A DNA stretch of 64,000 nucleotides from an uncultured Eubacteriales bacterium. Its GTDB lineage: Bacteria; Bacillota; Clostridia; Oscillospirales; CAG-272. The notes below the pieces were generated by a model. The model was given only the letters and a program-made list of their open reading frames with translations, was not told the origin of the DNA and made no database searches. This document shows positions 11,191 to 46,259 of this stretch, piece by piece (position 1 is the first letter of the stretch; each line of letters opens with the position of its first letter). The DNA lies in assembly GCA_900547565.1 (NCBI GenBank), contig URHI01000001.1:3533-67532 (forward strand), written 5' to 3'. A program made the position numbers and the translations under genes.

Positions 11191-11191
11191 T

Positions 11192-30220: not shown

Positions 30221-30598
30221 ATGCTTACGCTGGATAAGCTGTCGAGGACACCAATATATGAGCAAATAATCAATAATGTACGACGTGAAATCAGCGCCGG
30301 GACGATGGCCGAACAGTCACAGTTGCCGTCAGTACGCGAGTTGTCGGCATTTTTGGGTGTAAACCCCAATACTGTTCAACGCGCCTACAACGAGCTGTGC
30401 TTGCGCGGCTATATAGTAACCGTTGCTGCGCGCGGCGCTTTTGTAGCCGAGGGGGCGCGCGAAAAAATTCTGTCCGAGGGGCGCGATAAACTAAAGCAAC
30501 TGTCTGAATTGGCCGCAGAGCTCAGACACGCCGGTGTGACACAGGACGATATTATTGCGGCCGTGACCGAAAATCTTTCAGGAGGTAGCGAACAATGA
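30221..30598 (+). CDS. GntR family (YtrA-subfamily-like, short) transcriptional regulator
   Basis: PIYEQIINNVRREISAGTM...LPSVRELSAFLGVNPNTVQRAYNEL. At 125 aa it has no large effector domain. Confidence 0.88.
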   Translation: MLTLDKLSRTPIYEQIINNVRREISAGTMAEQSQLPSVRELSAFLGVNPNTVQRAYNELCLRGYIVTVAARGAFVAEGAREKILSEGRDKLKQLSELAAELRHAGVTQDDIIAAVTENLSGGSEQ

Positions 30599-31518: not shown

Positions 31519-32932
31519 AGTATTCGACTTCGGACTTTACCGCGTAGGACTTCGCCGAGTCAAGGTGATCGGACTGTTCTCGGCGCTGGTATGCGTTGTC
31601 GGTTCAGCCATACTTCCCGTGGCCGAAATGTTCACAAAAATAAACTCCACTTATACGTACAGGGTCTCGCCGGGCACATATGCCGTAATGCTCTGGGCAC
31701 TGATCGTTCTCGCGCCGCTTATCATGTATCACATGTTTTCATTTCTGACAAACCGACGCGATTCTGACTTTTATCACTCGCTCCCCTACACCCGCACAAC
31801 CATGTATTTCAGCTTTTTTGCCGCCGCTATGACCTGGATATGGGGGATACTGCTGGCAAGCGTCGCGGTCTGCGGTTTGTTGTGGGTCGTACTGCCTTTC
31901 AATACGATAATCAGCATAAAAGTAGTGTATACCGCGCTTATCAACTTTGCAGTGGCAACACTGTGCACAGCCGCCTTTGTACCGGCCGCGCTGTCAGCGA
32001 CCGGAACAGTCACCTCGGCTTTCCTGCTGTACATCAGCGTCATGTTCACTCCGAAATTCACGGTGTGGATGTTCACAGAATGCCTGCTTATTCACACTCC
32101 CATTCTCTACATCCCGGATAAGTGGCTGAATTACCTGCAATTCGGGCTGTTTGAGCCGTATGCCATGATGCGAAACAACAGCGTCTGCGATTGGGCTTCC
32201 ATTATTTACACCACCGTACTGTCGCTGATATTCGTGGCGGCAGGTTGGATAATATTCCGCAAGCGCCGCAGTGAGACCGCAAGCGTCCCTGCTCCGTCCA
32301 AGGGCTTGCAGGTGCTGTACCGTTGCTGTATCACAATTCCGCTGCTTATGTGCATGATGTACTCGGTATTTGCGGACTCTGTAAACACTCTGACCATCGT
32401 CTTAGCAGTCACGTCAGTCCTGGCATACTATCTGTATGAGCTGATTACCACCAAAAAGATCCGCAAAATGCTTGCCGCTACCAAGTTTGTATGGTTGCTG
32501 CCGGTATTCTGCGCGGTATTTGCCGGAGGTGTACTGCTGACATCGTCGCTCATATATGCCGACACTCCCGACGCTGACAAAATCGACCATATCCGTATTG
32601 CGGCATACAACAACAATGACGCAATCTTGTACCACAAGTATGCCGAAACACCGATTGATGACCCGGAAATCATTGCGTCGACCGTGAAGCTACTGAAAGA
32701 CAAAAGCATAAAATCCTGGGGACGGCAAGCAATGGTGGAAATAACCACCACCTCAGGCCGCAAGCTGATGCGCCAGGTACGCTGCCTTGAAGCACTTATC
32801 TACCTCGAAGATTCGGATAAATATACGGACTTTATGAACCGGCTCTACACATATTACAAATCCAAAAATATTGACCACAGCATCTCCAAGGAATATTTCG
32901 ACTTTGAACAAACAAACTTTATTCAGCAGTAA
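31511..32932 (+). CDS. Multi-pass membrane protein (putative ABC-2-type permease partner) with a C-terminal soluble domain
   Basis: It overlaps the ATPase gene by 8 nt. About 9 hydrophobic segments are followed by a ~120-aa hydrophilic tail. Confidence 0.6.
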   Translation: MNKVFDFGLYRVGLRRVKVIGLFSALVCVVGSAILPVAEMFTKINSTYTYRVSPGTYAVMLWALIVLAPLIMYHMFSFLTNRRDSDFYHSLPYTRTTMYFSFFAAAMTWIWGILLASVAVCGLLWVVLPFNTIISIKVVYTALINFAVATLCTAAFVPAALSATGTVTSAFLLYISVMFTPKFTVWMFTECLLIHTPILYIPDKWLNYLQFGLFEPYAMMRNNSVCDWASIIYTTVLSLIFVAAGWIIFRKRRSETASVPAPSKGLQVLYRCCITIPLLMCMMYSVFADSVNTLTIVLAVTSVLAYYLYELITTKKIRKMLAATKFVWLLPVFCAVFAGGVLLTSSLIYADTPDADKIDHIRIAAYNNNDAILYHKYAETPIDDPEIIASTVKLLKDKSIKSWGRQAMVEITTTSGRKLMRQVRCLEALIYLEDSDKYTDFMNRLYTYYKSKNIDHSISKEYFDFEQTNFIQQ

Positions 32933-32944
32933 CACCGCCTTTCG

Positions 32945-33250
32945 ATGAATTATAAAGAATACTCAGAGGAACTGAAGCCGCTCATGGATTCACTGCTTGA
33001 AACCTATATCAACGAGTTCAACTCACTGACCGAAGACGAGCGGTCGTTGTTGATGGGATACTTTGAAATTGGCAGTGATGTCGATTATATTTACACCTGT
33101 TTTAGCTTTCCTGCCGATTGGCCATATTATCAATACAACGACAATACGACGTTTTACGTTATAAAGAAGTATACTCCCGAAAGCTATGAGCTGCTTCAGG
33201 AGCTATTTAAGCACTATAAACATTCTGAATATATAAAAAGCCATTCCTGA
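32945..33250 (+). CDS. Hypothetical small protein
   Basis: 101-aa ORF 12 nt after the permease stop, followed by a terminator. I recognise no family. Confidence 0.45.
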   Translation: MNYKEYSEELKPLMDSLLETYINEFNSLTEDERSLLMGYFEIGSDVDYIYTCFSFPADWPYYQYNDNTTFYVIKKYTPESYELLQELFKHYKHSEYIKSHS

Positions 33251-33261
33251 AGAATAAAAGC

Positions 33262-33298
33262 TTCCCCCTGTGTAACAAATCACACAGGGGGAAATTTT
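33262..33298 (+). terminator. Rho-independent terminator
   Basis: Perfect 12-bp stem ttccccctgtgt / acacagggggaa followed by ATTTT. Confidence 0.75.
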
Positions 33299-33304: not shown

Positions 33305-33345
33305 TACAAAACATAACCTCCGGCAGAAAATTTGCCGGAGGTTAT
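33305..33345 (-). terminator. Rho-independent terminator of the opp operon
   Basis: Perfect 13-bp stem ataacctccggca / tgccggaggttat. On the minus strand it is followed by GTTTTGT. Confidence 0.75.
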
Positions 33346-33347: not shown

Positions 33348-33767
33348 TCAATATAAGTTGTAAAATCTGATTATAAAAAACACAGCCACTGCCATGTAAG
33401 CCAATCCAGTGAAGAAAATAAAACCGTAGCCCTTCACTCCGCCCGTGCTGCGTTTGCGCTGTACATAATCAGCATAGGTTTCGTGCTTTTCAAGTGTACT
33501 GCCCAGTGGGATAAATGCCCGTGCCGCGCGCGACACCACATAAGACAGTCCGTAGAACATGCCTTCGTTTGAGATCCACACCAATGCCGCACACAAAATG
33601 AGCACTACTCCGGGAATGGTGAAAGCATCCGCAAGTATACGGCAACGCTCCAGCTCGGTCGCGGCCTCGGCGTAGCCGTGAAGGGCAATGACTGCAAAGG
33701 CCATAAGTCCCCCCACGGCAATGGTTACACCGTATTTTATCAGAGTCTTGGTTATTTTTTGCTTCAC
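33348..33767 (-). CDS. Small membrane protein (DUF3899-like), translationally coupled to oppF
   Basis: ATGA overlap with oppF. It has 4 hydrophobic helices. The family assignment is from memory only. Confidence 0.55.
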   Translation of the reverse strand: MKQKITKTLIKYGVTIAVGGLMAFAVIALHGYAEAATELERCRILADAFTIPGVVLILCAALVWISNEGMFYGLSYVVSRAARAFIPLGSTLEKHETYADYVQRKRSTGGVKGYGFIFFTGLAYMAVAVFFIIRFYNLY

Positions 33768-35038
33768 AGCCCCAGCTCCTTGCGGTAGCGCGCCTCCTCC
33801 TGGTCATTGCACCGGACAAAGTGACCGGGAGTGATCTCACGCATTGAAGGCTTATCAACGCTGTAGTCATGCTCGGCTATTGCGTTGTATATTATACGGG
33901 TGCGCTTTTTTTCGGCACGCGGGTCCGGCAGAGGTATGGCCGACAGTAGCGAACGCGTATACGGATGCAATGGATGTGCAAAAAGCTCATCAGAGCTTGC
34001 CAGCTCAACCATTTTACCGTAATACATAACACCTATGCGGTCTGAGAAATACTTGACTACCGAAAGGTCATGCGCAATAAACAAAATAGTCAAGTTCAGC
34101 TTGGAACGCAGCTCGTTAAGCAAATTAATAACCTGTGCCTGTATAGACACGTCGAGCGCCGACACCGGCTCGTCTGCAATCAGCATATCCGGATTCATAA
34201 TCACAGAACGCGCGATGCCTACTCTCTGTTTTTGGCCGCCCGAAAACTCGTGCGGATAACGTCCTGCATGCTCACGTACCAAACCGACCAGCTCAAGTAT
34301 CTCATACACCTTTTCGTCGATATACTTCTTATCCTTGATACCGTTTATAACCAGCCCCTCGGAAATTATTTCACTAACCGTCATACGCGGATTAAGCGAC
34401 GCAACAGGATCCTGGAATATCATTTGAATCTGCGTGATGAGTTTAGTCTTTTTGGCTACTCTCAGCTTTTCACGGTACTCCTTCTTCAGTGCGGCCTCCT
34501 CGGGCTTGCTGGCAACCGCGGCCAACTTGGGACGATACTCTTCCTCCAGCTTTTTGACAAGTGTGTCGGAATACTCTCGGTCGGAGTTCTTGTGATCATA
34601 TTTTGCCGAACGTATCTCGGCACGGTCTTTTGCAACAGACTGCTTGAGCGACTTCTGGAGCTCGGCGATCCTGGCATCATTAGCCGCCTTATTACCGGGA
34701 TTCTCAGACGAATCCTTCTGTAACTCACGTATTTGAGCGGCAGTTTGCTTCTTGCTGGCCTTTATGTGGTCATAGTAAGACCGAGTACCGGCACATATAC
34801 GCTGCCCCTTGAAATAAATGCTTCCCGATGTTATATCGTATATTTTGAGTATTGAACGGCCGGTCGTTGTCTTACCACAGCCTGACTCGCCGACAAGTCC
34901 GAACACCTCACCCTTTTTGATATCAAAGCTGACATCGTCAACCGCGCGGGTTTCGTGCCCCTTGACTTTGAAATACTGACAGAGATGCTCTACTCTCAGC
35001 AACACTTCCTGCTGTTCATTGTTGTTATTGCTGTTCAT
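33764..35038 (-). CDS. oppF: Oligopeptide/dipeptide ABC transporter ATP-binding protein (OppF-like) with a ~100-aa insertion
   Basis: [40 protein letters not shown] and [13 protein letters not shown]. The charged insertion lies between Walker A and the Q-loop. Confidence 0.85.
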
Positions 35039-37208
35039 TTGCTTCTCCTTCCGTCAGTGATTTTTTCATTCTGGCGATACGGTCGGTTATGATTTTGGGA
35101 ACCTCAACCTTAGGAGCATCGGGATGCAACAGCCATGTTGCCGCAGTATGAGTCGGGGACACCCGGAACATGGGAGGCTGCTTTTCAAAGTCTATCTTCA
35201 TAGCATACCTGTTTCGCTCTGCAAATGCGTCGCCCTCGGGAGGGTAGATCATATTTGGGGGTGTGCCGGGGATAGCATCCAGCTTTTCGTTTGTATCAAG
35301 GTCCGGCATGGAGGATAGCAGCGCCCAGGTGTAAGGGTGACGCGGATCGTAGAAAATATCCTCTGCAGTGCCATATTCCACAATTTTGCCTGCGTACATA
35401 ACAGCAATATTATCCGCCATGTTGGCCACAACACCCAGGTCATGCGTGATGAATATAACCGACAGGTTGCGCTCACGCTTGAGATTATTGATAAGCTCAA
35501 GAATTTGAGCCTGTATAGTAACATCCAATGCCGTTGTCGGCTCATCACAGATGAGGATATCTGGGTTGGCGGACAGCGCAATGGCAATGACTATACGCTG
35601 ACGCATACCGCCCGAGAACTCAAACGGATACTGATAGAAACGGATACGTGGCTCAGGTATGCCGACCTCCTCCATGAGCTTAATGGCCTTTTCCTTGGCC
35701 ATAGCCTTGGTGACCTTATACACCACCGCGGACGCTTTTTCCTTAAGATAGTCGATTAGCGCCACGGCTCGCTGCTGAACATCCTCAGTGCCTGACTCAA
35801 GATAATTCTTGTAATGTTTTTCAAGACGATCGATGATGTCTATGATGTTCTGTCTGAGCATATCAAGGTCGCACACAGACTTCGGAACGACCTTCCAGTC
35901 GACCTGCTTGCCGCGGGCTATCAGCGCATCGCGTTTTGCCGTCTGTCGTGCGAATCTTGCTTCCTCACGCGGGTTATTTGCCTTGTAGTAAAAATATTTG
36001 TCAATGGCATTATCCATACTGGAGCGGAAGGTATATGCTATGCTGTCCTTTACGGTTTCCAGACGATCGATGGAGGTTTCCACAACGTCAGCCAGCTCAC
36101 GGACCAACTTTTTTGCCTCTGCCTTGTCAAAATCTGCGCTGAACAAGCCTTTGATCTGATCAAGGCGCTCGACAACCGTCTCCTTACCTTTAGAGGCATG
36201 GTGTACAGAATACTCGATGCCGCATTTTTCATACTCTATGAACTCATCCATAAATTCGCGGTTAAGCAGTTCAAGTGCACGCGAATTAGCCTCGTCAGCC
36301 GGAACGACCGACAGATCATCGTCAGGATTTTTCATAGTCCAGTATCCGATACGGAAAAAGTTGGGACGTGTAGCCGTCAACAGCTTATCAAGCAGCTCCG
36401 ACACCGCATCAAGCGAAGAACGTATCTCGGCAGGCAGAACCAGCGGCTGATTTTTGGGACGGTTTTTGTCCTCCTTATAGTGGGACACCTGCGTTTTAAG
36501 TTGCTGAGTCAACCCCGTCAGCTCCTCGCCGTGACCTGCCAGCAGATATTTGTCGTTTATCTGTACCAGCTTGGCGCACAAGCTCTTGAGATTGGCGGCT
36601 ACGTCAAGATTTTGCTTACGCTCTATTAAGAACAGCAGCTCGGAAATTTCGCCCTGACATTCCTCGGCACGGTTTCTTGACTCATTGTATACGTTTTCCA
36701 GTTTGATAGCTTCAATATTGAATTTATCAAACGTGCTGATGAGACGTTCAGTCTCATCGGTAGGCTTACCGGATGCTATAATGCACTCCTTGAGCTTGGC
36801 CAGCATCGAATTGAACTCTGCTCTTGCCTCGCGGCGATTGACCTTGTTTTTAAGCAGCATGGCCTCGGTGATCTGCTTGCCGATCTTGACTATGGGGTTA
36901 AGGGAGGACAGCGGATCCTGGAATATCATGGATATTTTATCGCCCCTGATCTTGTACATATCCGTCTCCGGCAGCTTGAGCAGATCTTTGCCGTCGTAGA
37001 GGATTTCACCGCTCTCCACAATGGAGTTACCGGCCAGTATCCCCAGAATGGCCTTGGAGGTGACCGATTTACCCGAACCCGATTCTCCGACTATAGCCAG
37101 TGTTTTGCCGCGTTCGAGATCGAAGGATATGTCTCGCACCGCCTTAAGCGTTCCACCGGGGGTACGGAATGATATTGTCAGTCTTTTGACCTGAAGTATA
37201 TTATCCAT
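35025..37208 (-). CDS. oppD: Oligopeptide ABC transporter ATP-binding protein (OppD-like) with a ~360-aa insertion
   Basis: GESGSGKSVT, ISMIFQDPLSSLNP, then an insertion, then FSGGMRQRIVIAIAL, ICDEPTTALDVT and the C-terminal oligopeptide-type tail HPYTWALL. Confidence 0.85.
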   Translation of the reverse strand: MDNILQVKRLTISFRTPGGTLKAVRDISFDLERGKTLAIVGESGSGKSVTSKAILGILAGNSIVESGEILYDGKDLLKLPETDMYKIRGDKISMIFQDPLSSLNPIVKIGKQITEAMLLKNKVNRREARAEFNSMLAKLKECIIASGKPTDETERLISTFDKFNIEAIKLENVYNESRNRAEECQGEISELLFLIERKQNLDVAANLKSLCAKLVQINDKYLLAGHGEELTGLTQQLKTQVSHYKEDKNRPKNQPLVLPAEIRSSLDAVSELLDKLLTATRPNFFRIGYWTMKNPDDDLSVVPADEANSRALELLNREFMDEFIEYEKCGIEYSVHHASKGKETVVERLDQIKGLFSADFDKAEAKKLVRELADVVETSIDRLETVKDSIAYTFRSSMDNAIDKYFYYKANNPREEARFARQTAKRDALIARGKQVDWKVVPKSVCDLDMLRQNIIDIIDRLEKHYKNYLESGTEDVQQRAVALIDYLKEKASAVVYKVTKAMAKEKAIKLMEEVGIPEPRIRFYQYPFEFSGGMRQRIVIAIALSANPDILICDEPTTALDVTIQAQILELINNLKRERNLSVIFITHDLGVVANMADNIAVMYAGKIVEYGTAEDIFYDPRHPYTWALLSSMPDLDTNEKLDAIPGTPPNMIYPPEGDAFAERNRYAMKIDFEKQPPMFRVSPTHTAATWLLHPDAPKVEVPKIITDRIARMKKSLTEGEANEQQ

Positions 37209-37211
37209 ATC

Positions 37212-38786
37212 TTATTCCTCCACTCCGCGCAGTGACGGGTTGAACGCGTCACGCAGACCGTTGCCGAACAGGTTGAAGCTGATTTCCAGCAGTGAAATTA
37301 TGAGTGCCGGGAACAGCATAAGGTGTGGGTAATTTGTCCAGATACTGCTGGCATCGGACAGCAAGGTACCCAGTGAGGTTGTTGTCGAGCCGCCCAGCTT
37401 AATAATACCGAGGAAGCTCAACATACTCTCGCTGAAGATAACACCCGGGATAACCAACACAGATGACGTAATGATAGTACCCAGCGAGTTGGGGAATATA
37501 TGCTTCATAATAATACGTCTGTCGCTGGCTCCGAGCGTGCGGGCTGCCATGACGTATTCCGAATTTTTAAAGCGATAGAACTGCTTACGCACAAGTGCCG
37601 AGGTACCTATCCAGCCTGTCAGCACAAATGCAAACAGCAGACTCGGAATTGCGCCCACCTTTGCCGCCAGATGTATCTGGAACAGCGTTGCCACGACAAT
37701 GAACGGCACACCCGACAAAACATCGGATATACGGTCCAGAACAAGGTCAATGGTTCCGCCGTAATAGCCCTGGACTGCGCCGTAAACCGCACCTATCACA
37801 AAGTTGATGACTGATACGCATACCGACACCAGCAAGCTCAGTCGAACGCCGTTTGCAAGGCGGAGAGACATATCATAGCCCTGTGAATCTGTGCCGAAAA
37901 TGTACTCCGGCTCAAACCCGTTTTTGAACTGATAGTAGTTGTAGTACAGCACCCTTACCTTGTACATTGCTGTTTCGGTAGTACCTCCACCGGTATACTC
38001 GTAATATTTAAGGCTGCCGTCTGCGTTGCGCTTGTAGTTGTCTTCCAGTATCATGTTGTCGGACAACTTGATCTTTTTAACGCTGCCGTCCTCAAGAACC
38101 CGGACCGGCTCGTATTTGGAGTTGGCCTTGTACCAGTAATTTCCCTTTGTACTTGTGGGATCGGGGTTGTACTCGTTGATCTCAACCAGCGGATAGAGCA
38201 CGTGCTTGCCGGTCTGTTTTTCCCACTCGACAATACGATCGTATTCCTCTCGCTCAATGCTGAGATAGAGAAAACCCACCTCAAGATAAGTGTCTACTCT
38301 GACCTCATAACGCGACTGCGGGTTATTTGCATCACCGTTAAGTCCGTTATTTTTGATAACCGGCTGATATTCGCTGTCAAGCGACTCGGCAAGCGTAACG
38401 CCTTTGCCGTCGTAATCCAGCGCACCCATACCGATGGCGTATATTGAAATAAGCCCCTTTTCGGAAAACTTACGTTCAATTCCGCCGTCTGCCATACCGA
38501 TTTTTTTGAGTGTCAGGTTTCTCGGCCCCATCTTCTGATAGTAAGTATCCAAAAAAGTGGCGTCGTATTTGACAGTCAGCAACGGTGTCAGAAAGGCAAA
38601 CAGCACTATTATCAAAATGATGATCGCCGCTACGATTGATGCTTTGTTACGGCAAAAACGCATCCAGGCGTCTTTGAAATAACCTATAGGCTTGTCTACA
38701 AATTTATGGTCGGTTATGCGTTCGCCATGATTGGCAAACTCAAACTTCTCGCGGGGGATATTGACGTACTGATTGTTGTCCTGCAT
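37212..38786 (-). CDS. oppC: Oligopeptide ABC permease (OppC-like) with a ~200-aa extracytoplasmic insertion after TM1
   Basis: The C-terminal half is a typical BPD_transp_1 core. At 524 aa it is well above the usual ~300. Confidence 0.8.
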   Translation of the reverse strand: MQDNNQYVNIPREKFEFANHGERITDHKFVDKPIGYFKDAWMRFCRNKASIVAAIIILIIVLFAFLTPLLTVKYDATFLDTYYQKMGPRNLTLKKIGMADGGIERKFSEKGLISIYAIGMGALDYDGKGVTLAESLDSEYQPVIKNNGLNGDANNPQSRYEVRVDTYLEVGFLYLSIEREEYDRIVEWEKQTGKHVLYPLVEINEYNPDPTSTKGNYWYKANSKYEPVRVLEDGSVKKIKLSDNMILEDNYKRNADGSLKYYEYTGGGTTETAMYKVRVLYYNYYQFKNGFEPEYIFGTDSQGYDMSLRLANGVRLSLLVSVCVSVINFVIGAVYGAVQGYYGGTIDLVLDRISDVLSGVPFIVVATLFQIHLAAKVGAIPSLLFAFVLTGWIGTSALVRKQFYRFKNSEYVMAARTLGASDRRIIMKHIFPNSLGTIITSSVLVIPGVIFSESMLSFLGIIKLGGSTTTSLGTLLSDASSIWTNYPHLMLFPALIISLLEISFNLFGNGLRDAFNPSLRGVEE

Positions 38787-38787
38787 C

Positions 38788-39747
38788 TTACTTCTCCCCC
38801 ATTCTTATTCTCGGATCGATAAATCCGTAGCTGATGTCGACCACGATACCTGCCAGCAGACCGACAAAGGTATAGAACACGGTGTCCATCATAAATACAT
38901 CGTAGTCCAGCAGGTTAATTGATTTTATATAAAGCTGTCCCACTCCGGGTATGGAGAAAATCTCCTCGATTATCATCGAGCCACCAAGAATACCGATAAA
39001 GCTGGAGATAATCATAGGCAGAATCGGGACCATGGCGTTCTTAAGAGCATGGCGTGTGGTTGCCTGCGTACGCGTCAAACCCTTTGTACGAGCCAAAAGC
39101 ATGTAGTCAGATGTTAGTGTTTCGGTTAGTTCGGCACGGGTAAATCGGCATAGTCTCGCAATTTCCGCAAAGGAAAGTGCCAGAATAGCCGGGATCATAC
39201 TGTAAAACATTTTGCCGGTAAACCATGAGCCGCCCGCATCGGCAAGCGAATAAACAGTAAGCGGGAACAAATTCCATTTAAGATACAGAAAATACTGCAC
39301 CAAGAACGCATAAACATAACTCGGCACGGAAACAAACACCATAACCATGGTGCTGATAACATGATCCTGCCACTTGTTCTTTCTGATTGCAGCATAAATT
39401 CCGAAACCGATACCGAGCGGTATCGAAAACAGAAGTGAATAAAGATTGACCAGCACTGTAGGCAAAAGCCGGCTGGTAAGCACTTCCCAGGCGGGCGTGC
39501 GGAAAGATATGTTCCAAGAGGTACCGAAATCCCAGCTTGTAACTATGTTTTTGAGATAAATGCCATATTGTATAAGCAACGGCTTGTTGTAGCCGAGCGC
39601 TTCGAATCTTGCGAGGATAACTGCCCGCTGGTTTTTATCAATAGGCAGCTCACGCGGAAGAATTCTGATCAGCATAAAGCAGATCGTGGTTATCACGAAA
39701 AGTGTGAACAGCATCAACAGAACTCTTTTGATAACATATTTCGTCAT
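38788..39747 (-). CDS. oppB: Oligopeptide ABC permease (OppB-like)
   Basis: The N-terminus MTKYVIKRVLLMLFTLFVITTICFMLI and the EAA-like region LARTKGLTRTQATTRHALKNA are typical. Confidence 0.88.
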   Translation of the reverse strand: MTKYVIKRVLLMLFTLFVITTICFMLIRILPRELPIDKNQRAVILARFEALGYNKPLLIQYGIYLKNIVTSWDFGTSWNISFRTPAWEVLTSRLLPTVLVNLYSLLFSIPLGIGFGIYAAIRKNKWQDHVISTMVMVFVSVPSYVYAFLVQYFLYLKWNLFPLTVYSLADAGGSWFTGKMFYSMIPAILALSFAEIARLCRFTRAELTETLTSDYMLLARTKGLTRTQATTRHALKNAMVPILPMIISSFIGILGGSMIIEEIFSIPGVGQLYIKSINLLDYDVFMMDTVFYTFVGLLAGIVVDISYGFIDPRIRMGEK

Positions 39748-39811
39748 CGGTTATCTCCTTGATAATATCGGTTAACGCCCGAAGGGCTTTTTTACCCGCC
39801 GGGCGCATGCC

Positions 39812-39852
39812 GAAAAATCGTAGACAGGCGGAGGTAAATTAATACCTCCGCC
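39812..39852 (-). terminator. Intercistronic hairpin or partial terminator between oppA and oppB
   Basis: On the minus strand: ggcggaggta-ttaatt-tacctccgcc, followed by ...GATTTTT. Confidence 0.5.
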
Positions 39853-39891
39853 CACCCTCATAGGGATATTCAAATCCCGGTTGCTACGTTA

Positions 39892-42381
39892 TTATTCGTA
39901 GTTAAGAGTTCCGTTCTGGCTTGCAACGTACTCAGCCCATGCAGCGTCATCATAGTTGAAGCTCATCAGACGTAGGCCGCCGAAGTCATACATGATGTTG
40001 TAGTCCTCGGTGTAGTACTTAACCTGGTAGGAAAGCATGGAGCAAGCGGTGGTGCCGCAGAGCGGGATACGATAGTACAGCTTGAGGTACATTTCCTCGA
40101 GCTGAGCCGTGATGGACAACTTTACATCGAAGCCCGCATTAGCGTACTTACCGTTACCGATAAGGCAGTTAGACCACTCATAGCAAGTCATGGTAACATC
40201 CTCGCCTTTGACCTTGAGAGTCCATTTCGTCGAGGTGGGATCCCAGCAGGCAGCCTCATTGATGTCGTAAGTAACGGGATCCATGTAGACCTGGAAGTTA
40301 CGGAACGGGTAGAAGGCAGCGCCGCCCCATGCGCCGTAACCGATAGCGAACTCGCCCTTCGGAACATCGGCGTAACGGTCGGAAATATTGCCGATAGCCT
40401 CAAAGGTCACCTTGCCGAAGCCGGAGCCTTCGATAGCAGCGTTGACAAACTCGTTGAGCAGTGTGACCTGCTTCTGGTCAGCGGAATCAAGCGCACCCTT
40501 CTTCCAGCCTATACGGATCTTGATCTCTTCACCGGCTTTGTACAGACCGTCTTTAACAAGCTGTTCGCAAGCAGCCTTCATCAGAGCCTTTGCCTCAGTG
40601 AGGTTGTAACCGTTGATGGAATCATATGCTTCCTTAAGAGTAGCATAAGCCTTGCCTGCACCGTATTCAACACCGTAAAGGTTGCAGACAGCCTGCATAG
40701 CCTCGTCGGAGTTACGGTAAGAGGAGGTAGGATCGTTGTAAACATCGTAGAAGTACAGATTGTTCATCAGCGCATATGCGGGCTTGTAGCCGGCGGTAGC
40801 GGTGACGTACTTAGCTCTGTCGATACTGAGCGACATAGCCTTACGGAAATCTGTGCTGGAAAGAACAACAGAGTTGGTGTTGCCCTTGGAGGTATCCATA
40901 GCCTTGAGCGCTTCAACATTGGTGTTGAAGAAGAAGGACTGTGTATAGGTTTCGTCAACCTTGTACAGCTGGTCGGAGGTAGAGTAGGTCAACAGATCGT
41001 CGGCAGAAGGCGTCCACTCGGTCAGCTCGCCCTTCATGAAGGCCAGCTTAGCGGCCTCGTCCTTCATGACGTCAATGACTATCTTGGTTGCCTGATACTG
41101 CTGACGCTTTTCACCGTCAACCTCAAAGTTTGTGTAGGAAATGAGAGAGCCGTCTTTCTGCTTCTCAAAGCCGTACCAGTTTTCGTTCTGGACAAAGACC
41201 ATCTGCTTGTCTTTTTCAAGAGACTCAATCTTGTAGACGCCATAGGACATGGTAGTCTCGGGAGAAGTACCGTAGTTGGTGGTAACCAGCTCACCGGTCG
41301 TATCCTTGCCGGCCTCGTACAGATCCTTGTAAACAAGCCATGTGGAGGTGCAGGAGGTGAGGAAGTAGTTCAGCTCGATGCTGGTCTGGCAGACGTAACG
41401 AATGGTGTAGTCGTCAACCTTGTAGCAACCGACGTTGCCGTCGTACTCAACCTTTTCACCGACCTTGCCGGTATTTATAAACAGAGCTTCCTTAAGAACA
41501 TTCGCCTGCTCAGTTGCATCGGTAATACCGAACAGATTTGCCAGCAGGTCATTGACCAGCTTTATGGCAGTATCCTTGTTCTCGGCTGTGAGCTTGGTGT
41601 AGCCATAAACGTTGGCAGCATCACCGATAGCCTTGTAATCGGCATCGTCACCTACACCGTAGGTGGAGTGCAACTCGTTGAGGCTCATGCTGTAAAGAGT
41701 AATGTCAGAGCTGGACAGGTTGATATAGACCTCGCCCTTGGCGATACCGGCTTCGAGATCATAGGAGTAATCAGGTGTATCTTTTTCACCGTAAGCGGGA
41801 ACCATCGGCTCGTAAATAGGAGCCTCGGAGTTGTAGTATGCGAGACCGCCTGCAACGGCAGACTCACCGCCCCAATAGAGGTTCGAACGGTAGTTTCTCA
41901 TCTTGGAGTCGAGCAACTGCTGCATGGAGTAGATATAGTCGTCAGCGGTGATCTTGACGCCATTTTCCCACATTGCATTGGGATTCAGCTTGATTTCGAA
42001 AACATAACCGGAATCAACGGAATCAACAGTTACGCCCTCGGGAAGAGTGACCTTATACTTGGTCAGATCATCCTTGTGATCCTTGGTAACGTCGGTGATG
42101 GAGGTAGCCATCTCGTATACCCACTGATACACGCCGTTCTCAGAGTCCAGAATTGACATCGTGCAGAACGGGGATGAGAGGTAGCCGAGGATAGCATCAT
42201 CAGCATTGGTTTCCCAGGTGTGAGGGTTCCAGTTGTTACCCAGGGCAGTGGAATAAGATTTGTAAGTGTAGGATTTCGCGTTAGCCTTAGTGTTTTTGCA
42301 GCTGGAGAAAAGAACTGCCATAGACAACAGCATGCAAACGGCCAGAGCTATACTGAGAATCCTTCTCATTGTCTTACTCAT
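39892..42381 (-). CDS. oppA: Family-5 (OppA-like) solute-binding lipoprotein, unusually large (829 aa)
   Basis: The signal peptide ends in LFSSC. It is the first gene of the opp operon. RBS aaggag is present. The call rests mainly on SBP_bac_5-like context. Confidence 0.75.
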   Translation of the reverse strand: MSKTMRRILSIALAVCMLLSMAVLFSSCKNTKANAKSYTYKSYSTALGNNWNPHTWETNADDAILGYLSSPFCTMSILDSENGVYQWVYEMATSITDVTKDHKDDLTKYKVTLPEGVTVDSVDSGYVFEIKLNPNAMWENGVKITADDYIYSMQQLLDSKMRNYRSNLYWGGESAVAGGLAYYNSEAPIYEPMVPAYGEKDTPDYSYDLEAGIAKGEVYINLSSSDITLYSMSLNELHSTYGVGDDADYKAIGDAANVYGYTKLTAENKDTAIKLVNDLLANLFGITDATEQANVLKEALFINTGKVGEKVEYDGNVGCYKVDDYTIRYVCQTSIELNYFLTSCTSTWLVYKDLYEAGKDTTGELVTTNYGTSPETTMSYGVYKIESLEKDKQMVFVQNENWYGFEKQKDGSLISYTNFEVDGEKRQQYQATKIVIDVMKDEAAKLAFMKGELTEWTPSADDLLTYSTSDQLYKVDETYTQSFFFNTNVEALKAMDTSKGNTNSVVLSSTDFRKAMSLSIDRAKYVTATAGYKPAYALMNNLYFYDVYNDPTSSYRNSDEAMQAVCNLYGVEYGAGKAYATLKEAYDSINGYNLTEAKALMKAACEQLVKDGLYKAGEEIKIRIGWKKGALDSADQKQVTLLNEFVNAAIEGSGFGKVTFEAIGNISDRYADVPKGEFAIGYGAWGGAAFYPFRNFQVYMDPVTYDINEAACWDPTSTKWTLKVKGEDVTMTCYEWSNCLIGNGKYANAGFDVKLSITAQLEEMYLKLYYRIPLCGTTACSMLSYQVKYYTEDYNIMYDFGGLRLMSFNYDDAAWAEYVASQNGTLNYE

Positions 42382-42809
42382 GGTTTTGAAATCTCCTTAT
42401 TTAAAAATTTTGTAACTGAATCTAACACAGGCTGTACCCCGGCACGGAACAGGTATCACCGTTCACCCGAACGACACCGATAATTCACCTTATGTTTTGA
42501 TTATTATATCAAAATGTTAATAAGTTGTCAATACTTTATTTAAATTATAAACATATTTATCCAAATAAGAGCATATAAAATGATTTTTTATCAAACCAAA
42601 TTATCATTTTTAGATAAATAGTCAACAATGACAAGTAAAAATGGCGGCTGCACAGCCGTCGGCAACACAAATTCACACGCAGCATAAGGCGATTCGCCTT
42701 TCCCTCCGGCTCACAAAAGCCACCCCGGCATTGCACTGTATATGAGCTTATATATAATTAGGAAGGTATTTGATTCCCGGGCACATATTGCGTCCGAAAC
42801 AAGCCGCCA

Positions 42810-42865
42810 CCACAAGATATAGGCAAAAACGCACAAAAAGCGCCTACAACATCTATATATTGTGT
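42810..42865. promoter_or_regulatory. Two candidate NrdR boxes
   Basis: ccacaagatataggca (42810-42825) matches the remembered consensus acacwatatatwgtgt at 11 of 16 positions. catctatatattgtgt (42850-42865) matches at 13 of 16. The centres are 40 bp apart. Confidence 0.35.
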
Positions 42866-42932: not shown

Positions 42933-42967
42933 GACACTGCTGAGCTATTTTAGGGGGAGGTGTGCCG

Positions 42968-43666
42968 ATGCAACATACAATAAACGGGCTGGCAAAGCTG
43001 ACACTGCTGGATTTCCCGGGCAAAACGGCTGCAACCGTCTTTCTTGCCGGTTGCAACTTCAGGTGCCCCTTCTGCCATAATGCACCTCTTGTGACCGAGC
43101 TTGAGGGTGCACAGCACATCGGATATGACGAGCTTGAAGCCTTTCTGAAAAAGCGGGCAGGACTGCTGGACGGCATTGCAATAACCGGCGGTGAGCCTAC
43201 GCTGCGTCCGGAGCTTGATGAGCTGCTGAGTCTCATAAAGCGCTACGGCTACGCCACAAAGCTGGACACCAACGGCACAGATCCCGTCCGCCTTGGCCGT
43301 CTGATTGACGACGGACTGCTGGATTACGTCGCCATGGACATAAAAAATTCGCCCGCGAAATATGCGCTCACGGCCGGACTTGCCGATATCGACATGGACG
43401 CCATAAACGAAAGTATATCGCTGTTGCGCGGCGGCAGCGTGGAGCACGAATTCCGCACAACTGTGGTGTGCGGCCTGCACACGCCTGACGACATGGAACA
43501 GATAGGGCGCTGGCTGAGCGGTGAAACACGGTATTTTCTGCAGAATTTTGTTGATTCGGGAGCGCTCATCGTGCCGGGCACCAAAGGCGTCTCTCACGAT
43601 GAAATGCGGAAGTATCTTGAGATAGTCCGCAGGTATATCCCAACTGCAGAATTGCGCGGAATGTGA
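42968..43666 (+). CDS. nrdG: Anaerobic ribonucleoside-triphosphate reductase activating protein (radical SAM)
   Basis: CNFRCPFCHN cluster motif followed by GIAITGGEPTL. RBS gggggagg lies 7 nt before the ATG at 42968. Confidence 0.88.
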   Translation: MQHTINGLAKLTLLDFPGKTAATVFLAGCNFRCPFCHNAPLVTELEGAQHIGYDELEAFLKKRAGLLDGIAITGGEPTLRPELDELLSLIKRYGYATKLDTNGTDPVRLGRLIDDGLLDYVAMDIKNSPAKYALTAGLADIDMDAINESISLLRGGSVEHEFRTTVVCGLHTPDDMEQIGRWLSGETRYFLQNFVDSGALIVPGTKGVSHDEMRKYLEIVRRYIPTAELRGM

Positions 43667-43705
43667 AAAAATTATTAATATAATGACATATCGGAGGAAA
43701 AACTA

Positions 43706-46096
43706 ATGTACAGAGTCGTAAAAAGAGACGGCAAGATCGCAGACTTCAACATAGAGAAGATCAGCGAAGCCATTACCAAGGCGTTCGATGCCACCCAGAA
43801 GCCCTATACCCCCAACATCATTGACTTTCTCGCTCTTAAAGTAACCGCCGATTTTGCCCCTAAGGTAAAGGACGAGTTAATCGCTGTCGAGGACATTCAG
43901 GACAGCGTTGAGGAGGTCCTGAGTCAGGCGGGCTACGGCGATGTGGCAAAGGCCTATATTCTTTACCGCCGCAACCGCGAAAAGCTGCGTACCATGAGTA
44001 ACACAATACTTGACTACAAAAACGTCGTCGACAGCTACCTCAAGGCCGCAGACTGGCGCGTCAAGGAAAACTCCACCGTCACCTACTCGGTCGGCGGACT
44101 TATTCTCTCCAACTCGGGTGCAATCACCGCCAACTACTGGCTCAGCGAGGTGTACGACGATGAAATCGCCAACGCTCACCGCTCGGCCGATATCCATATT
44201 CACGACCTGTCCATGCTGACCGGTTACTGTGCCGGCTGGAGTCTGAAGCAGCTGATACAGGAGGGGCTCGGCGGAATTCCCGGCAAGATCTCGTCCTCTC
44301 CCGCCGCACATCTGTCCACGCTGTGCAATCAGATGGTCAACTTTCTCGGAATCATGCAGAATGAGTGGGCCGGTGCTCAGGCCTTCTCGTCGTTTGACAC
44401 CTATCTTGCCCCCTTCGTCAAGGTGGATAACCTGACCTACAAGGAAGTCAAGCAGTGCATACAGTCGTTTGTGTACGGTGTCAACACTCCGTCACGTTGG
44501 GGTACTCAGGCTCCCTTCACCAACATCACACTGGACTGGACGGTCCCGGCAGATCTCGCAGACCTCAACTGCATTGTCGGAGGCAAGGAATGTAACTTCA
44601 AATACCGTGACTGTGTGGCAGAGATGGCCATGGTCAACAAAGCATTCATCGAGATCATGATCGAGGGAGACGCCAACGGACGCGGCTTCCAGTACCCCAT
44701 TCCCACCTACTCGATCACGCGCAACTTCGACTGGTCGGAGACCGAAAACAACAAACTGCTGTTTGAAATGACCGCCAAGTACGGTACGCCCTATTTCTCA
44801 AACTATATCAACTCGGATATGGAGCCTTCGGACGTGCGTTCGATGTGCTGCCGCTTGCGGCTTGACCTGCGCGAACTGCGCAAAAAATCCGGCGGCTTCT
44901 TCGGCTCAGGCGAATCAACCGGTTCTATCGGTGTGGTTACTATCAATATGCCGCGTCTTGCATACCTTGCAGAAGACGAGGCTGACTTCTACCGCCGCCT
45001 TGACCGCATGATGGACATTTCGGCACGTTCGCTTAAGGTCAAGAGAACGGTCATTACACGTCTGCTTGAAGCCGGACTGTACCCCTACACCCGCCGCTAT
45101 CTCGGCAAATTTGACAATCACTTCTCAACCATCGGCCTTGTCGGCATGAACGAGGCCGGACTGAATGCCAACTGGCTCCGTGCCGATATGACACACAAGG
45201 AAACCCAGGAATTCACCAAAAACGTTCTCAATCACATGAGAGAGCGCCTGTCTGATTACCAGGAGAAATACGGTGACCTGTACAACCTCGAGGCCACTCC
45301 CGCCGAGTCAACATCATACCGCCTTGCCAAGCACGATGTTGCAAAATATCCCGACATCATCACCGCAGCACAGAACGGCGGAACACCCTATTATACCAAC
45401 AGCTCGCACCTCCCTGTCAGCTTTACCTCTGATATTTTCGAGGCTTTGGATATACAGGACGAGCTTCAGACACTGTACACCTCGGGCACAGTTTTCCACG
45501 CCTTCCTCGGTGAGAAGCTGCCTGACTGGCGCGCTGCAGCAAATCTTGTCCGTAAAATTGCCGAAAACTACAAGCTGCCCTACTACACACTTTCACCCAC
45601 ATATTCGGTCTGCCGGAACCACGGCTATCTGCCGGGTGAGCAGTTCAAGTGCCCCGAGTGCGGCTCCGAGGCTGAGGTCTACAGCCGCATAACCGGATAT
45701 TATCGTCCCGTACAGAACTGGAACAGCGGAAAAGCGCAGGAGTATAAGGAAAGACGCGTGTACGATCCTGCAGCATCCGCGCTGCACACCAACCAAGTGG
45801 CGGCCGAAGCTGTTCACGAAATGCAGGAGGGTTGCTGCTGTGGGCATCACCAGACAGGACACCGCGTGATACTTTTTGCGACAAAAACCTGCCCCAACTG
45901 CAAAATAGCCGCTGCCAAGCTGGACAAGGCCGGGCTGGCATATGAAAAGATATATGCCGATGAAAATCCCGAGGCCGCAACGCAGTTCGGTATCCGTCAG
46001 GCGCCCACGATCGTGGTTGTGGAAGGCGACAGTATCGAAAAATTCGCAGGTCCCGGTCCGGTTCAGAGATTCATAGACGAGGCCGTCAAGGCCTGA
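43706..46096 (+). CDS. nrdD: Class III anaerobic ribonucleoside-triphosphate reductase with a fused C-terminal glutaredoxin/NrdH-like domain
   Basis: An ATP-cone N-terminus, the finger-loop region RSMCCRLRL, the Zn-ribbon CPECG and the glycyl-radical motif SRITGYYRPV. A linker EGCCCGHHQTG follows, then VILFATKTCPNCKIAAAKL...QAPTIVV (Trx fold, CxxC). Confidence 0.9.
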   Translation: MYRVVKRDGKIADFNIEKISEAITKAFDATQKPYTPNIIDFLALKVTADFAPKVKDELIAVEDIQDSVEEVLSQAGYGDVAKAYILYRRNREKLRTMSNTILDYKNVVDSYLKAADWRVKENSTVTYSVGGLILSNSGAITANYWLSEVYDDEIANAHRSADIHIHDLSMLTGYCAGWSLKQLIQEGLGGIPGKISSSPAAHLSTLCNQMVNFLGIMQNEWAGAQAFSSFDTYLAPFVKVDNLTYKEVKQCIQSFVYGVNTPSRWGTQAPFTNITLDWTVPADLADLNCIVGGKECNFKYRDCVAEMAMVNKAFIEIMIEGDANGRGFQYPIPTYSITRNFDWSETENNKLLFEMTAKYGTPYFSNYINSDMEPSDVRSMCCRLRLDLRELRKKSGGFFGSGESTGSIGVVTINMPRLAYLAEDEADFYRRLDRMMDISARSLKVKRTVITRLLEAGLYPYTRRYLGKFDNHFSTIGLVGMNEAGLNANWLRADMTHKETQEFTKNVLNHMRERLSDYQEKYGDLYNLEATPAESTSYRLAKHDVAKYPDIITAAQNGGTPYYTNSSHLPVSFTSDIFEALDIQDELQTLYTSGTVFHAFLGEKLPDWRAAANLVRKIAENYKLPYYTLSPTYSVCRNHGYLPGEQFKCPECGSEAEVYSRITGYYRPVQNWNSGKAQEYKERRVYDPAASALHTNQVAAEAVHEMQEGCCCGHHQTGHRVILFATKTCPNCKIAAAKLDKAGLAYEKIYADENPEAATQFGIRQAPTIVVVEGDSIEKFAGPGPVQRFIDEAVKA

Positions 46097-46259
46097 ACGA
46101 GATGCTCCGAACAGGCATCATTAAGTCGTAGCAGAATTCACTGTCCGAAATATAATGGCCTCGGCGGCCTTACATAACAACACACAGCCGGGGACTGTCG
46201 TCCGGCGCACAATGCGCCAAAATCGCAGCAGCCCCCGGTCATTGCATGAGGATATTATA

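Follow-up and report, generated by a model that had tools for sequence, protein, structure and literature searches.

What accounts for an oligopeptide-type ABC importer in which four of the five canonical subunits are oversized, and is the enlargement real? The question is raised by a locus in the window analyzed here, a stretch of 64,000 nucleotides from an uncultured Eubacteriales bacterium, where OppA, OppC, OppD, and OppF are enlarged and OppB is of normal size. An original prediction had described an Opp-type ABC importer operon, oppA-B-C-D-F, with products of 829, 319, 524, 727, and 424 aa, of which only OppB was normal; coordinates and sizes were confirmed, and the Pfam domains of all five subunits agree with this assignment (Table 1). 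Our explanation, to which we give a probability of roughly 0.6 as a whole, is that the locus is one transcription unit for a member of a Clostridia-wide enlarged subfamily of Opp/Dpp binding-protein-dependent ABC importers, with private modules, a sixth gene, and the predicted roles set out below.

Operon Organization and Transcription Signals

The ORF list and translations place six co-directional genes, oppA-B-C-D-F and a DUF3899 gene, on the minus strand at 33348-42381, and all six ORFs were found with the expected coordinates and sizes. The operon is genuine and intact and encodes an oversized ABC importer of the oligopeptide type. No part of the importer core is missing: there are a receptor (a family-5 lipoprotein), two permeases, and a pair of motif-intact ATPases with an oligo_HPY C-terminal domain. 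Both ATPases are predicted from their motifs to be catalytically intact.

The proposed transcription unit comprises the promoter, oppA, a hairpin, the packed oppB-C-D-F and DUF3899 genes, and a terminator. The promoter precedes the oppA ATG by about 120 nt and is the only 12/12 consensus match in a 10-kb scan; no Rfam element was found in the oppA leader. The hairpin that had been predicted after oppA at 39827-39852 is real, with a perfect 10-bp stem that extends to 15 pairs at 39822-39857. A GC-rich hairpin is present in the oppA-oppB gap of 66 of 67 orthologous loci, where this gap is roughly 236 nt, in contrast to 2, 3, and -11 nt for the remaining junctions. The oppF stop overlaps the start of the DUF3899 gene at 33764-33767, and AAGGAG lies 8 nt upstream of the GTG start. 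Coupling of a small membrane protein gene at this position had been proposed and holds, although the overlap reads GTGA and not ATGA.

Table 1. Features of the enlarged opp locus, with positions in the window.
Feature	Position	Strand	Evidence or detail
Promoter, TTGACA, 17-nt spacer, TG-extended TATAAT	42503..42531	-	Consensus scan
oppA, 829-aa family-5 substrate-binding lipoprotein	39892..42381	-	SBP_bac_5, E=9e-28
GC-rich intercistronic hairpin 3' of oppA, then ACGATTTTTC	39822..39857	-	-23.1 kcal/mol
oppB, 319-aa permease, normal size	38788..39747	-	BPD_transp_1 + BPD_transp_1_N
oppC, 524-aa permease	37212..38786	-	OppC_N aa 36-80, BPD_transp_1 aa 334-520
OppC extracytoplasmic insertion, aa 78-292, 215 aa, TM1-TM2	37911..38555	-	Alignment
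oppD, 727-aa ATPase	35025..37208	-	ABC_tran + oligo_HPY
OppD insertion, aa 127-497, all-helical, in helical subdomain, splits NBD	35718..36830	-	Alignment + AF2
oppF, 424-aa ATPase, intact motifs	33764..35038	-	ABC_tran + oligo_HPY
OppF insertion, aa 82-192, highly charged basic segment before Q-loop	34463..34795	-	Alignment
Sixth gene, 139-aa DUF3899 membrane protein, GTG start	33348..33767	-	Pfam, GTGA overlap
Terminator-like hairpin, 11-bp stem, T-rich tail	33306..33343	-	Directly 3' of DUF3899 gene
Second hairpin past DUF3899 gene	33261-33294		Hairpin scan

The Enlarged Subunits

Insertion limits were set by alignment to solved Opp/Dpp structures (for OppF, to the second NBD of M. tuberculosis OppD). 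This comparison, which the original prediction had called for, delimited the insertions in OppC, OppD, and OppF and mapped the additions in OppA. Each of the three insertions lies within a single domain, with both flanks in frame. No extra segment of the four enlarged subunits matched Pfam, NCBIfam, or PDB sequences, and the extra domains are private to the enlarged Opp family. OppB aligns end to end with Opp3B/OppB profiles.

OppA, as translated, has an N-terminal signal peptide with a lipobox-like LFSSC (Cys28). Its enlargement of about 290 aa is dispersed, with some 120 residues between positions 163 and 305 and the rest in smaller additions. A profile of 26 orthologues found its best matches in peptide-binding proteins (5kzt, 6npo, PrgZ, and StOppA), and its weaker PDB matches include sugar receptors of family 5 (1vr5, 4pft, and 1zty). 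The canonical W-x-x-D motif is W685-G-G-A688 in this protein, and each of the 26 aligned orthologues has Ala or Ser in place of the Asp. In StOppA, where the motif is W-C-A-D, we take D419 to be the aspartate that anchors the peptide alpha-amino group. Judged by these alignments, the aspartate to which classical OppA/DppA anchor the peptide amino terminus is missing from the enlarged family. OppA is also the fastest-evolving subunit, and its two subgroups are only 26-35% identical; together with the missing anchor, this suggests that the substrate may not be ordinary peptides.

OppC residues 292-518 can be aligned with residues 79-300 of the E. coli protein, at 36% identity in the transmembrane domain (TMD), and homologues of 515-532 aa are abundant. 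The extracytoplasmic insertion after TM1, expected at about 200 aa, measures 215 aa and was predicted by AF2 to be an alpha/beta domain (pLDDT 85-92). When the model was compared with the PDB by Foldseek, the TMD alone was matched and the insertion had no structural counterpart; it likewise had no Pfam, NCBIfam, or PDB sequence match. The only long alignment, to MalF (471 columns, rmsd 19.5), is not meaningful. Conservation of the insertion is 31%, vs. 64% for the TMD, and many positions in the domain hold conserved aromatic, Asn, or Gly residues.

OppD keeps every ATPase motif intact, from Walker A and the Q-loop through the signature and Walker B to the H-loop. Structurally it is most similar to E. 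coli OppD (8z21_C), on which its core and C-terminal domain can be superposed with a target-normalized TM of 0.77. Its orthologues form more than 120 clusters of 713-740 aa with 64-99% identity. The 371-aa insertion follows the Q-loop helix and was modeled with helices of up to 54 residues at pLDDT of about 90, from shallow AF2 alignments (40-58 sequences, at least 64% identity) in which the OppD and OppC cores were modeled less confidently than the insertions. A search with this segment, which has no Pfam, NCBIfam, or PDB match, returned only 146 matches among 1.84 billion representative proteins; the full-length matches inspected (about 700-900 aa) were all OppDs with the insertion at the identical position. 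The insertion hardly changes in length (2% gaps) over loci that span 35-62% GC, with 35% identity compared to 75-87% for the core. The best-conserved block is aa 379-445; the segment has invariant residues and a basic block that is 55% conserved.

The 111-aa OppF insertion is 40% charged, with a net charge of +6, and complements that of OppD (basic vs. acidic). It is variable (29% identity, 15% gaps), and given this variation in length and sequence it could be largely a passive linker. The enlarged-family ATPases lack the four-Cys [4Fe-4S] site of characterized Opp/Dpp ATPases. The cluster is reported to be essential to the stability of the E. coli Dpp and M. tuberculosis Opp complexes (PMC12136057).

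The 139-aa product of the sixth gene matches DUF3899 at 34.2 bits (cut-off 23.4) and has three hydrophobic segments. In all sampled loci with sequence beyond oppF, that gene is followed by a DUF3899 homologue or look-alike.

Distribution in Clostridia

By motif scan, the same six-gene module with the same sizes is present in at least 592 species genomes, of which the best 80 are nearly all labeled Clostridia; the phyletic survey proposed earlier thus found a form that is not rare. Across 80 loci, OppA spans 788-1016 aa, OppC 506-641, OppD about 700-790, and OppF 351-580. One relative, with an OppD 65% identical to that described here, has an identical six-gene layout (855/321/524/733/418/139 aa). 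No conserved neighbor points to a substrate, as any given neighbor gene is shared by at most 6 of about 80 loci; PepF lies directly upstream in one relative, and a TldD/PmbA-like pair lies downstream in about five loci. The original prediction had named an already characterized, common Clostridial subtype as an outcome that would count against it. With at least 592 species genomes the enlarged form is a common Clostridial subtype, frequent among Clostridia of the gut, but no describing paper was found in the open-access literature searched and no domain model in Pfam or NCBIfam.

Relationship to Known Systems

The five-component architecture and operon logic are shared with E. coli OppABCDF/DppABCDF and M. 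tuberculosis OppABCD/DppABCD (8z21, 8z1v-8z1z, 8j5q-t, and 8wd9). Compared to canonical Opp/Dpp, the Clostridial system has about 215 extra residues in OppC, 371 in OppD, 111 in OppF, and about 290 in OppA, lacks the four [4Fe-4S] Cys and the N-terminus-anchoring Asp, and has the DUF3899 gene in addition.

The best functional analogy for the OppC insertion is S. pneumoniae AmiC (498 aa, with ECD1 and ECD2), which likewise has a large extracytoplasmic region after TM1. AmiC is an OppB-type subunit, whereas here the domain is carried by the OppC-type subunit (OppC_N). In AlphaFold-Multimer models of Ami, the AmiC region is predicted to be wedged between the lobes of the binding protein, clamping it (PMC11192437). 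The same paper gives AmiC no OppB/OppC assignment and reports neither enlargement of AmiE/AmiF nor a sixth gene.

Helical insertions between NBD halves, as in OppD, also occur in SMC/Rad50 coiled coils, the ABC-F arm, and UvrA insertion domains. OppD shares the SMC-type topology, in which a long helical stretch separates Walker A and the Q-loop from the signature and Walker B. The likeness does not go beyond topology, and the locus has no DNA- or ribosome-related context. An SMC_N match to OppD residues 36-605 was sub-threshold (25.6 bits vs. a cut-off of 40) and was rejected; the core is that of an Opp importer NBD. MalFGK2 is a type I importer whose permease MalF has a folded periplasmic domain, the P2 loop, in contact with the binding protein. 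However, this loop is placed between TM3 and TM4, is of another family, and has no structural match to the OppC domain, which follows TM1.

A DUF3899 gene of about 100 aa, reported as antisense, is embedded in the oppA_T-oppBCDF-tldR operon of E. faecalis (bioRxiv 10.64898/2026.09.22.753285), which extends the association of DUF3899 with Opp beyond Clostridia. The Clostridial locus differs from that operon in having no TnpB-like gene and no guide RNA.

Alternative Explanations

Spurious oversizing could arise in a metagenome-assembled genome from fused neighboring ORFs, from frameshifts, or from wrongly called starts, and public records do hold bad versions: several NCBI MAG proteins of 400-407 aa begin at Met320 of OppD, and in the chimeric representative P0197 an OppA-like N-terminus is joined to the C-terminus of an OppD. 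Such records shorten or scramble OppD, however, and none lengthens it; at locus L084 an intact 734-aa OppD ORF underlies a 406-aa gene call. Same-length OppD and OppC orthologues recur in hundreds of genomes, in hundreds of full-length clusters with 98-100% coverage, and the insertions lie inside single domains and, for OppD and OppC, are predicted to be folded. The OppD clusters, the six-gene relative, the 80 loci, and the L084 ORF refute an artifact, which we regard as extremely improbable. It is unlikely, with more to be said for it, that this is the enlarged Opp of Mollicutes, with insertions that go back to a shared Firmicutes ancestor and have simply diverged since. The expansions had been likened to those of Mollicutes, and the parallel holds in part: among the M. 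mycoides (JCVI-syn) models MMSYN1_0165 to MMSYN1_0168, whose ATPases are enlarged too, MMSYN1_0167 and MMSYN1_0168 are the best NCBIfam matches of OppD and OppF, the C-terminal half of OppD scores 373.6 bits against the Mycoplasma profile vs. 230.9 against enterobacterial OppD, and the pre-Q-loop insertion site of OppF coincides with about 320 extra positions of the Mycoplasma OppF profile. However, scores fall far under the equivalog cut-offs (468 vs. 740 and 407 vs. 800), and no insertion matches Mycoplasma profiles even at E<=1. The roughly 225 extra positions of Mycoplasma OppD precede the Q-loop (profile 72-298), with none at the 371-aa site after the Q-loop helix, and the size pattern is reversed, since by profile length M. 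mycoides enlarges OppB (388) and not OppC (307).

That the cytoplasmic insertions are near-neutral structural bloat with no specific role seems quite unlikely. Their rate of evolution is indeed two to three times that of the cores, and they carry no recognizable motifs of known families; the OppD insertion, on the other hand, is in every sampled family member, with its length, basic block, and invariant residues retained and its fold predicted with high confidence. A further, doubtful possibility concerns the cargo, which might be something other than ordinary free peptides (e.g., N-blocked or glycosylated peptides, muropeptides, or oligosaccharides), with the big receptor and the OppC domain serving to handle a bulkier ligand. 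The lost Asp anchor, the rapid divergence of OppA, the conserved aromatic, Asn, and Gly positions of OppC, and the weaker matches to sugar receptors point this way. Against it, every one of the strongest OppA matches binds peptides, Opp/Dpp models come nearest to the translocator and ATPases, the occasional neighbors are peptidases and not glycosidases, and there are bona fide OppA proteins that bind peptides but leave the N-terminus unfixed.

Proposed Function

For the enlarged Opp importer as we interpret it, the likeliest substrates are oligopeptides, which would be bound in the absence of the classical N-terminal anchor. The hairpin after oppA may attenuate or stabilize, leaving the receptor in excess over the translocator. 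The OppC domain would dock and clamp the large OppA, as the extracellular domains of AmiC have been proposed to do and the MalF P2 loop is known to do. In the cytoplasm, the OppD module, which is acidic, may join with the basic segment of OppF in an appendage on the NBD heterodimer that stabilizes or regulates the complex, possibly replacing the lost function of the Fe-S domain, and the DUF3899 protein would be a sixth, membrane-embedded subunit of the importer. The locus thus represents a common, apparently uncharacterized variant of the Opp importer, whose add-on modules would have extra functions.

Operon Organization and Genomic Context

ORF calling recovered six co-directional minus-strand genes spanning 33348-42381 (see table), and their sizes match the original prediction exactly. 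oppD and oppF overlap by 14 nt, and oppF and the small gene by 4 nt. The latter overlap had been described as ATGA, the sole error found in that prediction; it is GTGA, the small gene having a GTG start with AAGGAG 8 nt upstream. The hairpin reported after oppA proved to be strong, and across homologous loci the oppA-oppB gap has a median length of 236 nt and contains a hairpin in 66 of 67 cases, the remaining junctions measuring 2, 3, and -11 nt. Such a hairpin would lead to expression of more receptor than translocator. An Rfam scan of the oppA leader returned no element, neither a riboswitch nor a T-box. Two sub-threshold His_leader matches and one IsrM match, located on or beside the terminator hairpins, were attributed to chance. 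The GC content of the window is 50%, and a protein from a MAG labelled Eubacteriales bacterium matches OppC at 100% identity.

Coordinates of the opp operon, its expression signals, and the divergent ribonucleotide reductase genes
Feature	Position	Strand	Description
oppA	39892-42381	minus	829 aa; SBP_bac_5 (Pfam)
oppB	38788-39747	minus	319 aa; BPD_transp_1 and N-terminal domain (Pfam)
oppC	37212-38786	minus	524 aa; OppC_N and BPD_transp_1 (Pfam)
oppD	35025-37208	minus	727 aa; ABC_tran and oligo_HPY (Pfam)
oppF	33764-35038	minus	424 aa; ABC_tran and oligo_HPY (Pfam)
Small gene	33348-33767	minus	139 aa; DUF3899, over Pfam threshold
Promoter, TG-extended sigma-70, perfect	42531-42503	minus	Sole 12/12 consensus match in the region scanned
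Hairpin 3' of oppA	39857-39822	minus	-23.1 kcal/mol
Terminator-like hairpins	directly 3' of small gene	minus	From sequence
Radical-SAM activase (nrdG-like)	42962-43666	plus	
NrdD	43706-46096	plus	796 aa; ATP-cone and fused C-terminal glutaredoxin/thioredoxin-like domain
Thioredoxin-reductase-like flavoprotein	46155-47165	plus	

Divergent from oppA on the plus strand is an anaerobic ribonucleotide reductase (RNR) cluster (42962-47165). The redoxin domain fused to NrdD, together with the adjoining reductase, suggests that this class III RNR is thiol-dependent rather than formate-dependent. About 100 nt before the nrdG-like gene, in the 580-nt spacer separating that gene from oppA, is an NrdR-box-like sequence, CATCTATATATTGTGT (42850-42865; 3 mismatches to the consensus used); with one match against 0.69 expected by chance, it is not significant alone. 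Convergent with the opp operon on the plus strand (30595-33250) are genes for an ABC ATPase (307 aa) followed by 473-aa and 101-aa ORFs; the latter two have no Pfam match, and none of the three genes belongs to the opp unit. The minus strand at 7638-14421 carries a catabolic cluster of sugar or inositol-like type that encodes an SBP_bac_8 binding protein, an AraC regulator, a PfkB kinase, two xylose-isomerase-like TIM barrels, and a GFO/IDH/MocA oxidoreductase. No second, canonical Opp system was found in the window, the cluster at 5.8-14.4 kb being sugar-related.

A Complete Opp-Type Importer Lacking the Fe-S Cysteines

All components of an Opp-type importer are encoded at the locus, together with conserved add-ons. 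OppA, which has a signal peptide with LFSSC, matches SBP_bac_5 at 97.8 bits (E=9e-28; cut-off 32.4), as do family-5 (cluster C) receptors, which Gram-positives anchor by a lipid, and the profile of its orthologues matches structures of OppA, PrgZ, and AliC. The two permeases are distinct BPD_transp_1 proteins, one of them with OppC_N, as in importers of the Opp/Dpp type (peptide/opine/nickel; TC 3.A.1.5), and the top Foldseek matches of OppC are the E. coli and M. tuberculosis OppC proteins. Two ATPases are likewise present, OppD and OppF, each combining ABC_tran with oligo_HPY; Walker A, Q-loop, signature, Walker B, and H-loop are all intact in both, as read in translation and aligned.

A four-Cys [4Fe-4S] site is a trait of the structurally characterised Opp/Dpp members rather than part of the family definition. 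In E. coli DppD and DppF and in M. tuberculosis OppD, four Cys in the C-terminal domain bind the cluster, and its loss disassembles the complex (PMC12136057). The C-terminal domain of OppD from the window has no Cys and OppF has one, with Asp, Asn, and Thr at the OppD positions aligned to the cluster ligands. The same counts hold for 76 of 81 OppD orthologues (no Cys) and 70 of 79 OppF orthologues (one Cys). With the site missing in both sets of orthologues, the enlarged Opp family is predicted to be Fe-S-free.

Location and Properties of the Extra Residues

Aligning every subunit to solved Opp/Dpp transporters delimited the enlargements, as the original prediction had proposed. OppC residues 36-77 and 292-518 align to E. 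coli OppC 25-67 and 79-300, leaving about 215 aa extra between TM1 and TM2, which the known OppC topology would place on the extracytoplasmic side. OppD residues 2-126 and 498-690 align to M. tuberculosis OppD 2-126 and 122-316, so the 371 extra aa begin past the helix that follows the Q-loop, within the helical subdomain. For OppF, residues 12-81 and 193-374 align to segments that directly adjoin each other in the second NBD of M. tuberculosis OppD, with 111 aa extra directly before the Q-loop. The additional residues of OppA are dispersed; relative to Listeria OppA (PDB 5kzt), a profile of 26 orthologues located about 50 aa at the N-terminus, about 120 aa within the 163-305 stretch, and three further expansions of 30-37 aa.

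Searched alone against Pfam and NCBIfam, the insertions gave no match at E<=1, bar one of the OppD insertion to Apolipoprotein that was far below threshold (17 bits; cut-off 90), and neither the OppD nor the OppC insertion matched any PDB sequence. Among 1.84 billion representative proteins the OppD insertion has only 146 matches; each full-length one inspected (~700-900 aa) is an OppD with the insertion at the same position, the others being fragments. No plasmid copies of the insertion were found in a search for them. In Foldseek comparisons to the PDB, only the conserved cores found partners: OppD matched the E. coli OppD structure (target-normalised TM 0.77), and OppC its E. coli and M. 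tuberculosis counterparts. The AlphaFold2 model of the OppD insertion is all-helical, with helices of 37, 47, 54, and 38 residues (pLDDT about 90), and that of the OppC insertion is a compact alpha/beta domain (pLDDT 85-92) with many invariant aromatic, Asn, and Gly positions. Across 76 orthologues, the OppD insertion is stable in length (2% gaps) and 35% identical, compared with 75-87% identity for the NBD core. It is acidic overall (net -9), and its best-conserved block, residues 379-445, is net basic (55% identity). The OppF insertion is variable, 40% charged, and net +6. A distant low-GC family member (P0179; 897 aa) carries the insertion plus a C-terminal low-complexity tail of ~190 aa rich in Q, E, N, and K.

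The sixth gene product matches DUF3899 (PF13038) at 34.2 bits (gathering score 23.4) over profile positions 2-85 of 88, and the motifs L.D.F..pG, G.fd, and Y.dY.erK are kept in 68 orthologues. Among the best 80 homologous loci, all that extend far enough have a small hydrophobic, DUF3899-like ORF after oppF, 68 identified by BLAST and the other 12 by inspection. The opp operon of Enterococcus faecalis also contains a DUF3899 gene (bioRxiv 10.64898/2026.09.22.753285), which supports a general link between DUF3899 and Opp.

Distribution and Alternative Explanations

The survey of the enlarged form suggested at the outset showed it to be abundant. More than 120 protein-database clusters contain OppD proteins of 713-740 aa (64-99% identity, 98-100% coverage), some named from Lachnospiraceae, Oscillospiraceae, and Ruminococcaceae, and OppC proteins of 515-532 aa are as abundant as full-length OppD. 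Scanning one genome per species for the OppD C-terminal motifs HPYTWALL and M[IL]xPP[KVR]GDAF yielded at least 592 confirmed loci. The best 80 of these bear Clostridia labels nearly throughout, including Oscillospiraceae, Acutalibacteraceae, Lachnospiraceae, Christensenellaceae, Butyrivibrio crossotus, and Acetatifactor, and they span 35-62% GC, with OppA of 788-1016 aa, OppC of 506-641 aa, OppD of about 700-790 aa, and OppF of 351-580 aa. Labels such as Bacilli, Coriobacteriaceae, and Bacteroides on a few MAGs look like products of binning and were not trusted.

That the oversizing is an annotation artefact is ruled out by the abundance of same-size orthologues, by the same six-gene layout elsewhere, and by an intact ORF in another genome (locus L084). 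In one genome whose OppD is 65% identical, the products of the six genes measure 855/321/524/733/418/139 aa and the neighbourhood differs. OppD calls of 400-407 aa could be taken for a split or intermediate variant; however, one of them (P0446, at L084 8017-10221) proved to be called from Met320 of an ORF that is complete in the contig, and corresponds to the C-terminal 406 residues of an intact OppD of 727-734 aa. Five further NCBI MAG proteins named 'ATP-binding cassette domain-containing protein' (P0450, P0453, P0456, P0462, and P0463) have the same length and query coverage as P0446, and the Met320 start looks like a recurring truncation in the annotation of this family, which is under-represented in protein catalogues because some public MAG annotations start OppD there. 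In a 707-aa representative protein (P0197), an OppA-like N-terminus (signal peptide, family-5 signature) is followed by the latter half of the OppD insertion and the C-terminal part of OppD; an error of assembly or gene calling is the most likely origin of this chimera.

Assignment of OppD to the SMC/Rad50-type ATPases was rejected, as SMC_N reached 25.6 bits against a cut-off of 40 and the best structural matches were Opp/Dpp NBDs. The parallel drawn originally with Mollicutes Opp systems held for the related cores and for the OppF insertion site, but not for the OppD site, the insertion sequences, or the enlarged permease. In NCBIfam, OppD and OppF are best matched by the Mycoplasma mycoides equivalogs MMSYN1_0167 and MMSYN1_0168, although both scores fall far below the cut-offs (468.5 against 740 and 407.5 against 800). 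The C-terminal half of OppD scores 373.6 bits against the Mycoplasma model and 230.9 bits against enterobacterial OppD. Fragment scans placed OppD 4-75, 82-129, and 498-712 at MMSYN1_0167 positions 1-72, 298-345, and 338-553, and OppF 10-81 and 195-229 at MMSYN1_0168 positions 1-72 and 395-429. The surplus of the Mycoplasma OppF model thus amounts to about 320 positions ahead of the Q-loop, at the same site as in OppF here, and about 30 at the post-helix site. In the Mycoplasma OppD model, a surplus of about 225 positions precedes the Q-loop, and there is none at the 127/498 site. Because the OppD sites differ, the 371-aa domain is not the Mollicutes insertion. The insertions alone gave no match to Mollicutes Opp profiles at E<=1, and the enlarged permease is not the same one in the two groups. 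Judged from these alignments, the ATPase cores of the two systems are related, with the pre-Q-loop position a hot spot common to both. As to whether this is already a common, characterised Clostridial subtype, it is common, but no description of the insertions was found in the literature searched. The enlarged Opp is a common variant of a well-known kind of transporter, undescribed as far as that literature shows.

Receptor and Substrate

The W-x-x-D-Y-x-D-P motif of peptide-binding OppA and DppA proteins, seen as WGPDYQDP in 5kzt and WSADYADP in 3o6p, corresponds in the alignments to W685-G-G-A688-A-F-Y-P692 of OppA here. The Asp of this motif (D419 in StOppA), which forms a salt bridge to the ligand alpha-amino group in classical OppA and DppA, is replaced by Ala or Ser in all 26 OppA orthologues; the two independent alignments to PDB proteins are locally weak and agree with each other. 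With this anchor missing, the substrate, or at least the mode of binding, may differ from the textbook case. Oligopeptide transport is hinted at indirectly by the matches to peptide binders and by neighbours in a few loci, the oligoendopeptidase PepF directly upstream in one relative and a TldD/PmbA-like pair downstream in about five. No neighbouring gene is conserved, any one being common to at most 6 of about 80 loci. The receptor divides the family into two subgroups: identity to the OppA of the window is 48-67% in one and 26-35% in the other, compared with 50-74% for OppD and OppF. In one relative (locus L018), the best OppA-like ORF (10993-13419; 808 aa) is downstream of the small gene and not upstream of oppB. 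Diversification of the receptor on a conserved translocator looks likely.

Possible Roles of the Add-Ons

Overall, the original observation stands, and its interpretation does so in part: an Opp importer with conserved add-ons is borne out, and the functions of those add-ons are ones we infer. By analogy, the extracytoplasmic domain of OppC could clamp the large OppA. In the maltose system, the MalF P2 loop clamps the binding protein. AlphaFold-Multimer models of pneumococcal AmiC predict a clamping role for its two extracellular domains (PMC11192437). The oppositely charged insertions of OppD and OppF may form a cytoplasmic appendage that stabilises or regulates the NBD dimer, perhaps making up for the loss of the Fe-S domain. 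We propose the DUF3899 protein as a sixth importer subunit, its conserved K/R-rich loop predicted to be cytoplasmic by the positive-inside rule. It is conceivable, if rather unlikely in our estimation, that the acidic OppD domain, the basic OppF segment, and the DUF3899 loop together constitute an undescribed cytoplasmic/membrane module on a type I importer, replacing the Fe-S-stabilised C-terminal scaffold and coupling transport to a cellular signal or partner, e.g., by gating, trans-inhibition, or docking of a peptidase or regulator. Were this so, gut Clostridia would widely possess a six-subunit importer that works by a new regulatory principle.

In Firmicutes, peptide nutrition and peptide signalling run mainly through Opp-family importers, whose structural picture has been built on the compact, Fe-S-containing systems of E. 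coli and M. tuberculosis. Hundreds of species of gut Clostridia carry a differently built Opp, with no Fe-S cysteines, a 371-aa helical domain in one NBD, a folded extracellular domain on one permease, a receptor without the classical N-terminal anchor, and a sixth gene that is always encoded. Such a build is uncommon among type I importers and widespread in gut anaerobes, and it gives DUF3899 a concrete functional context. If the add-ons govern assembly, gating, or substrate range, they would have a bearing on nitrogen acquisition by dominant gut anaerobes.
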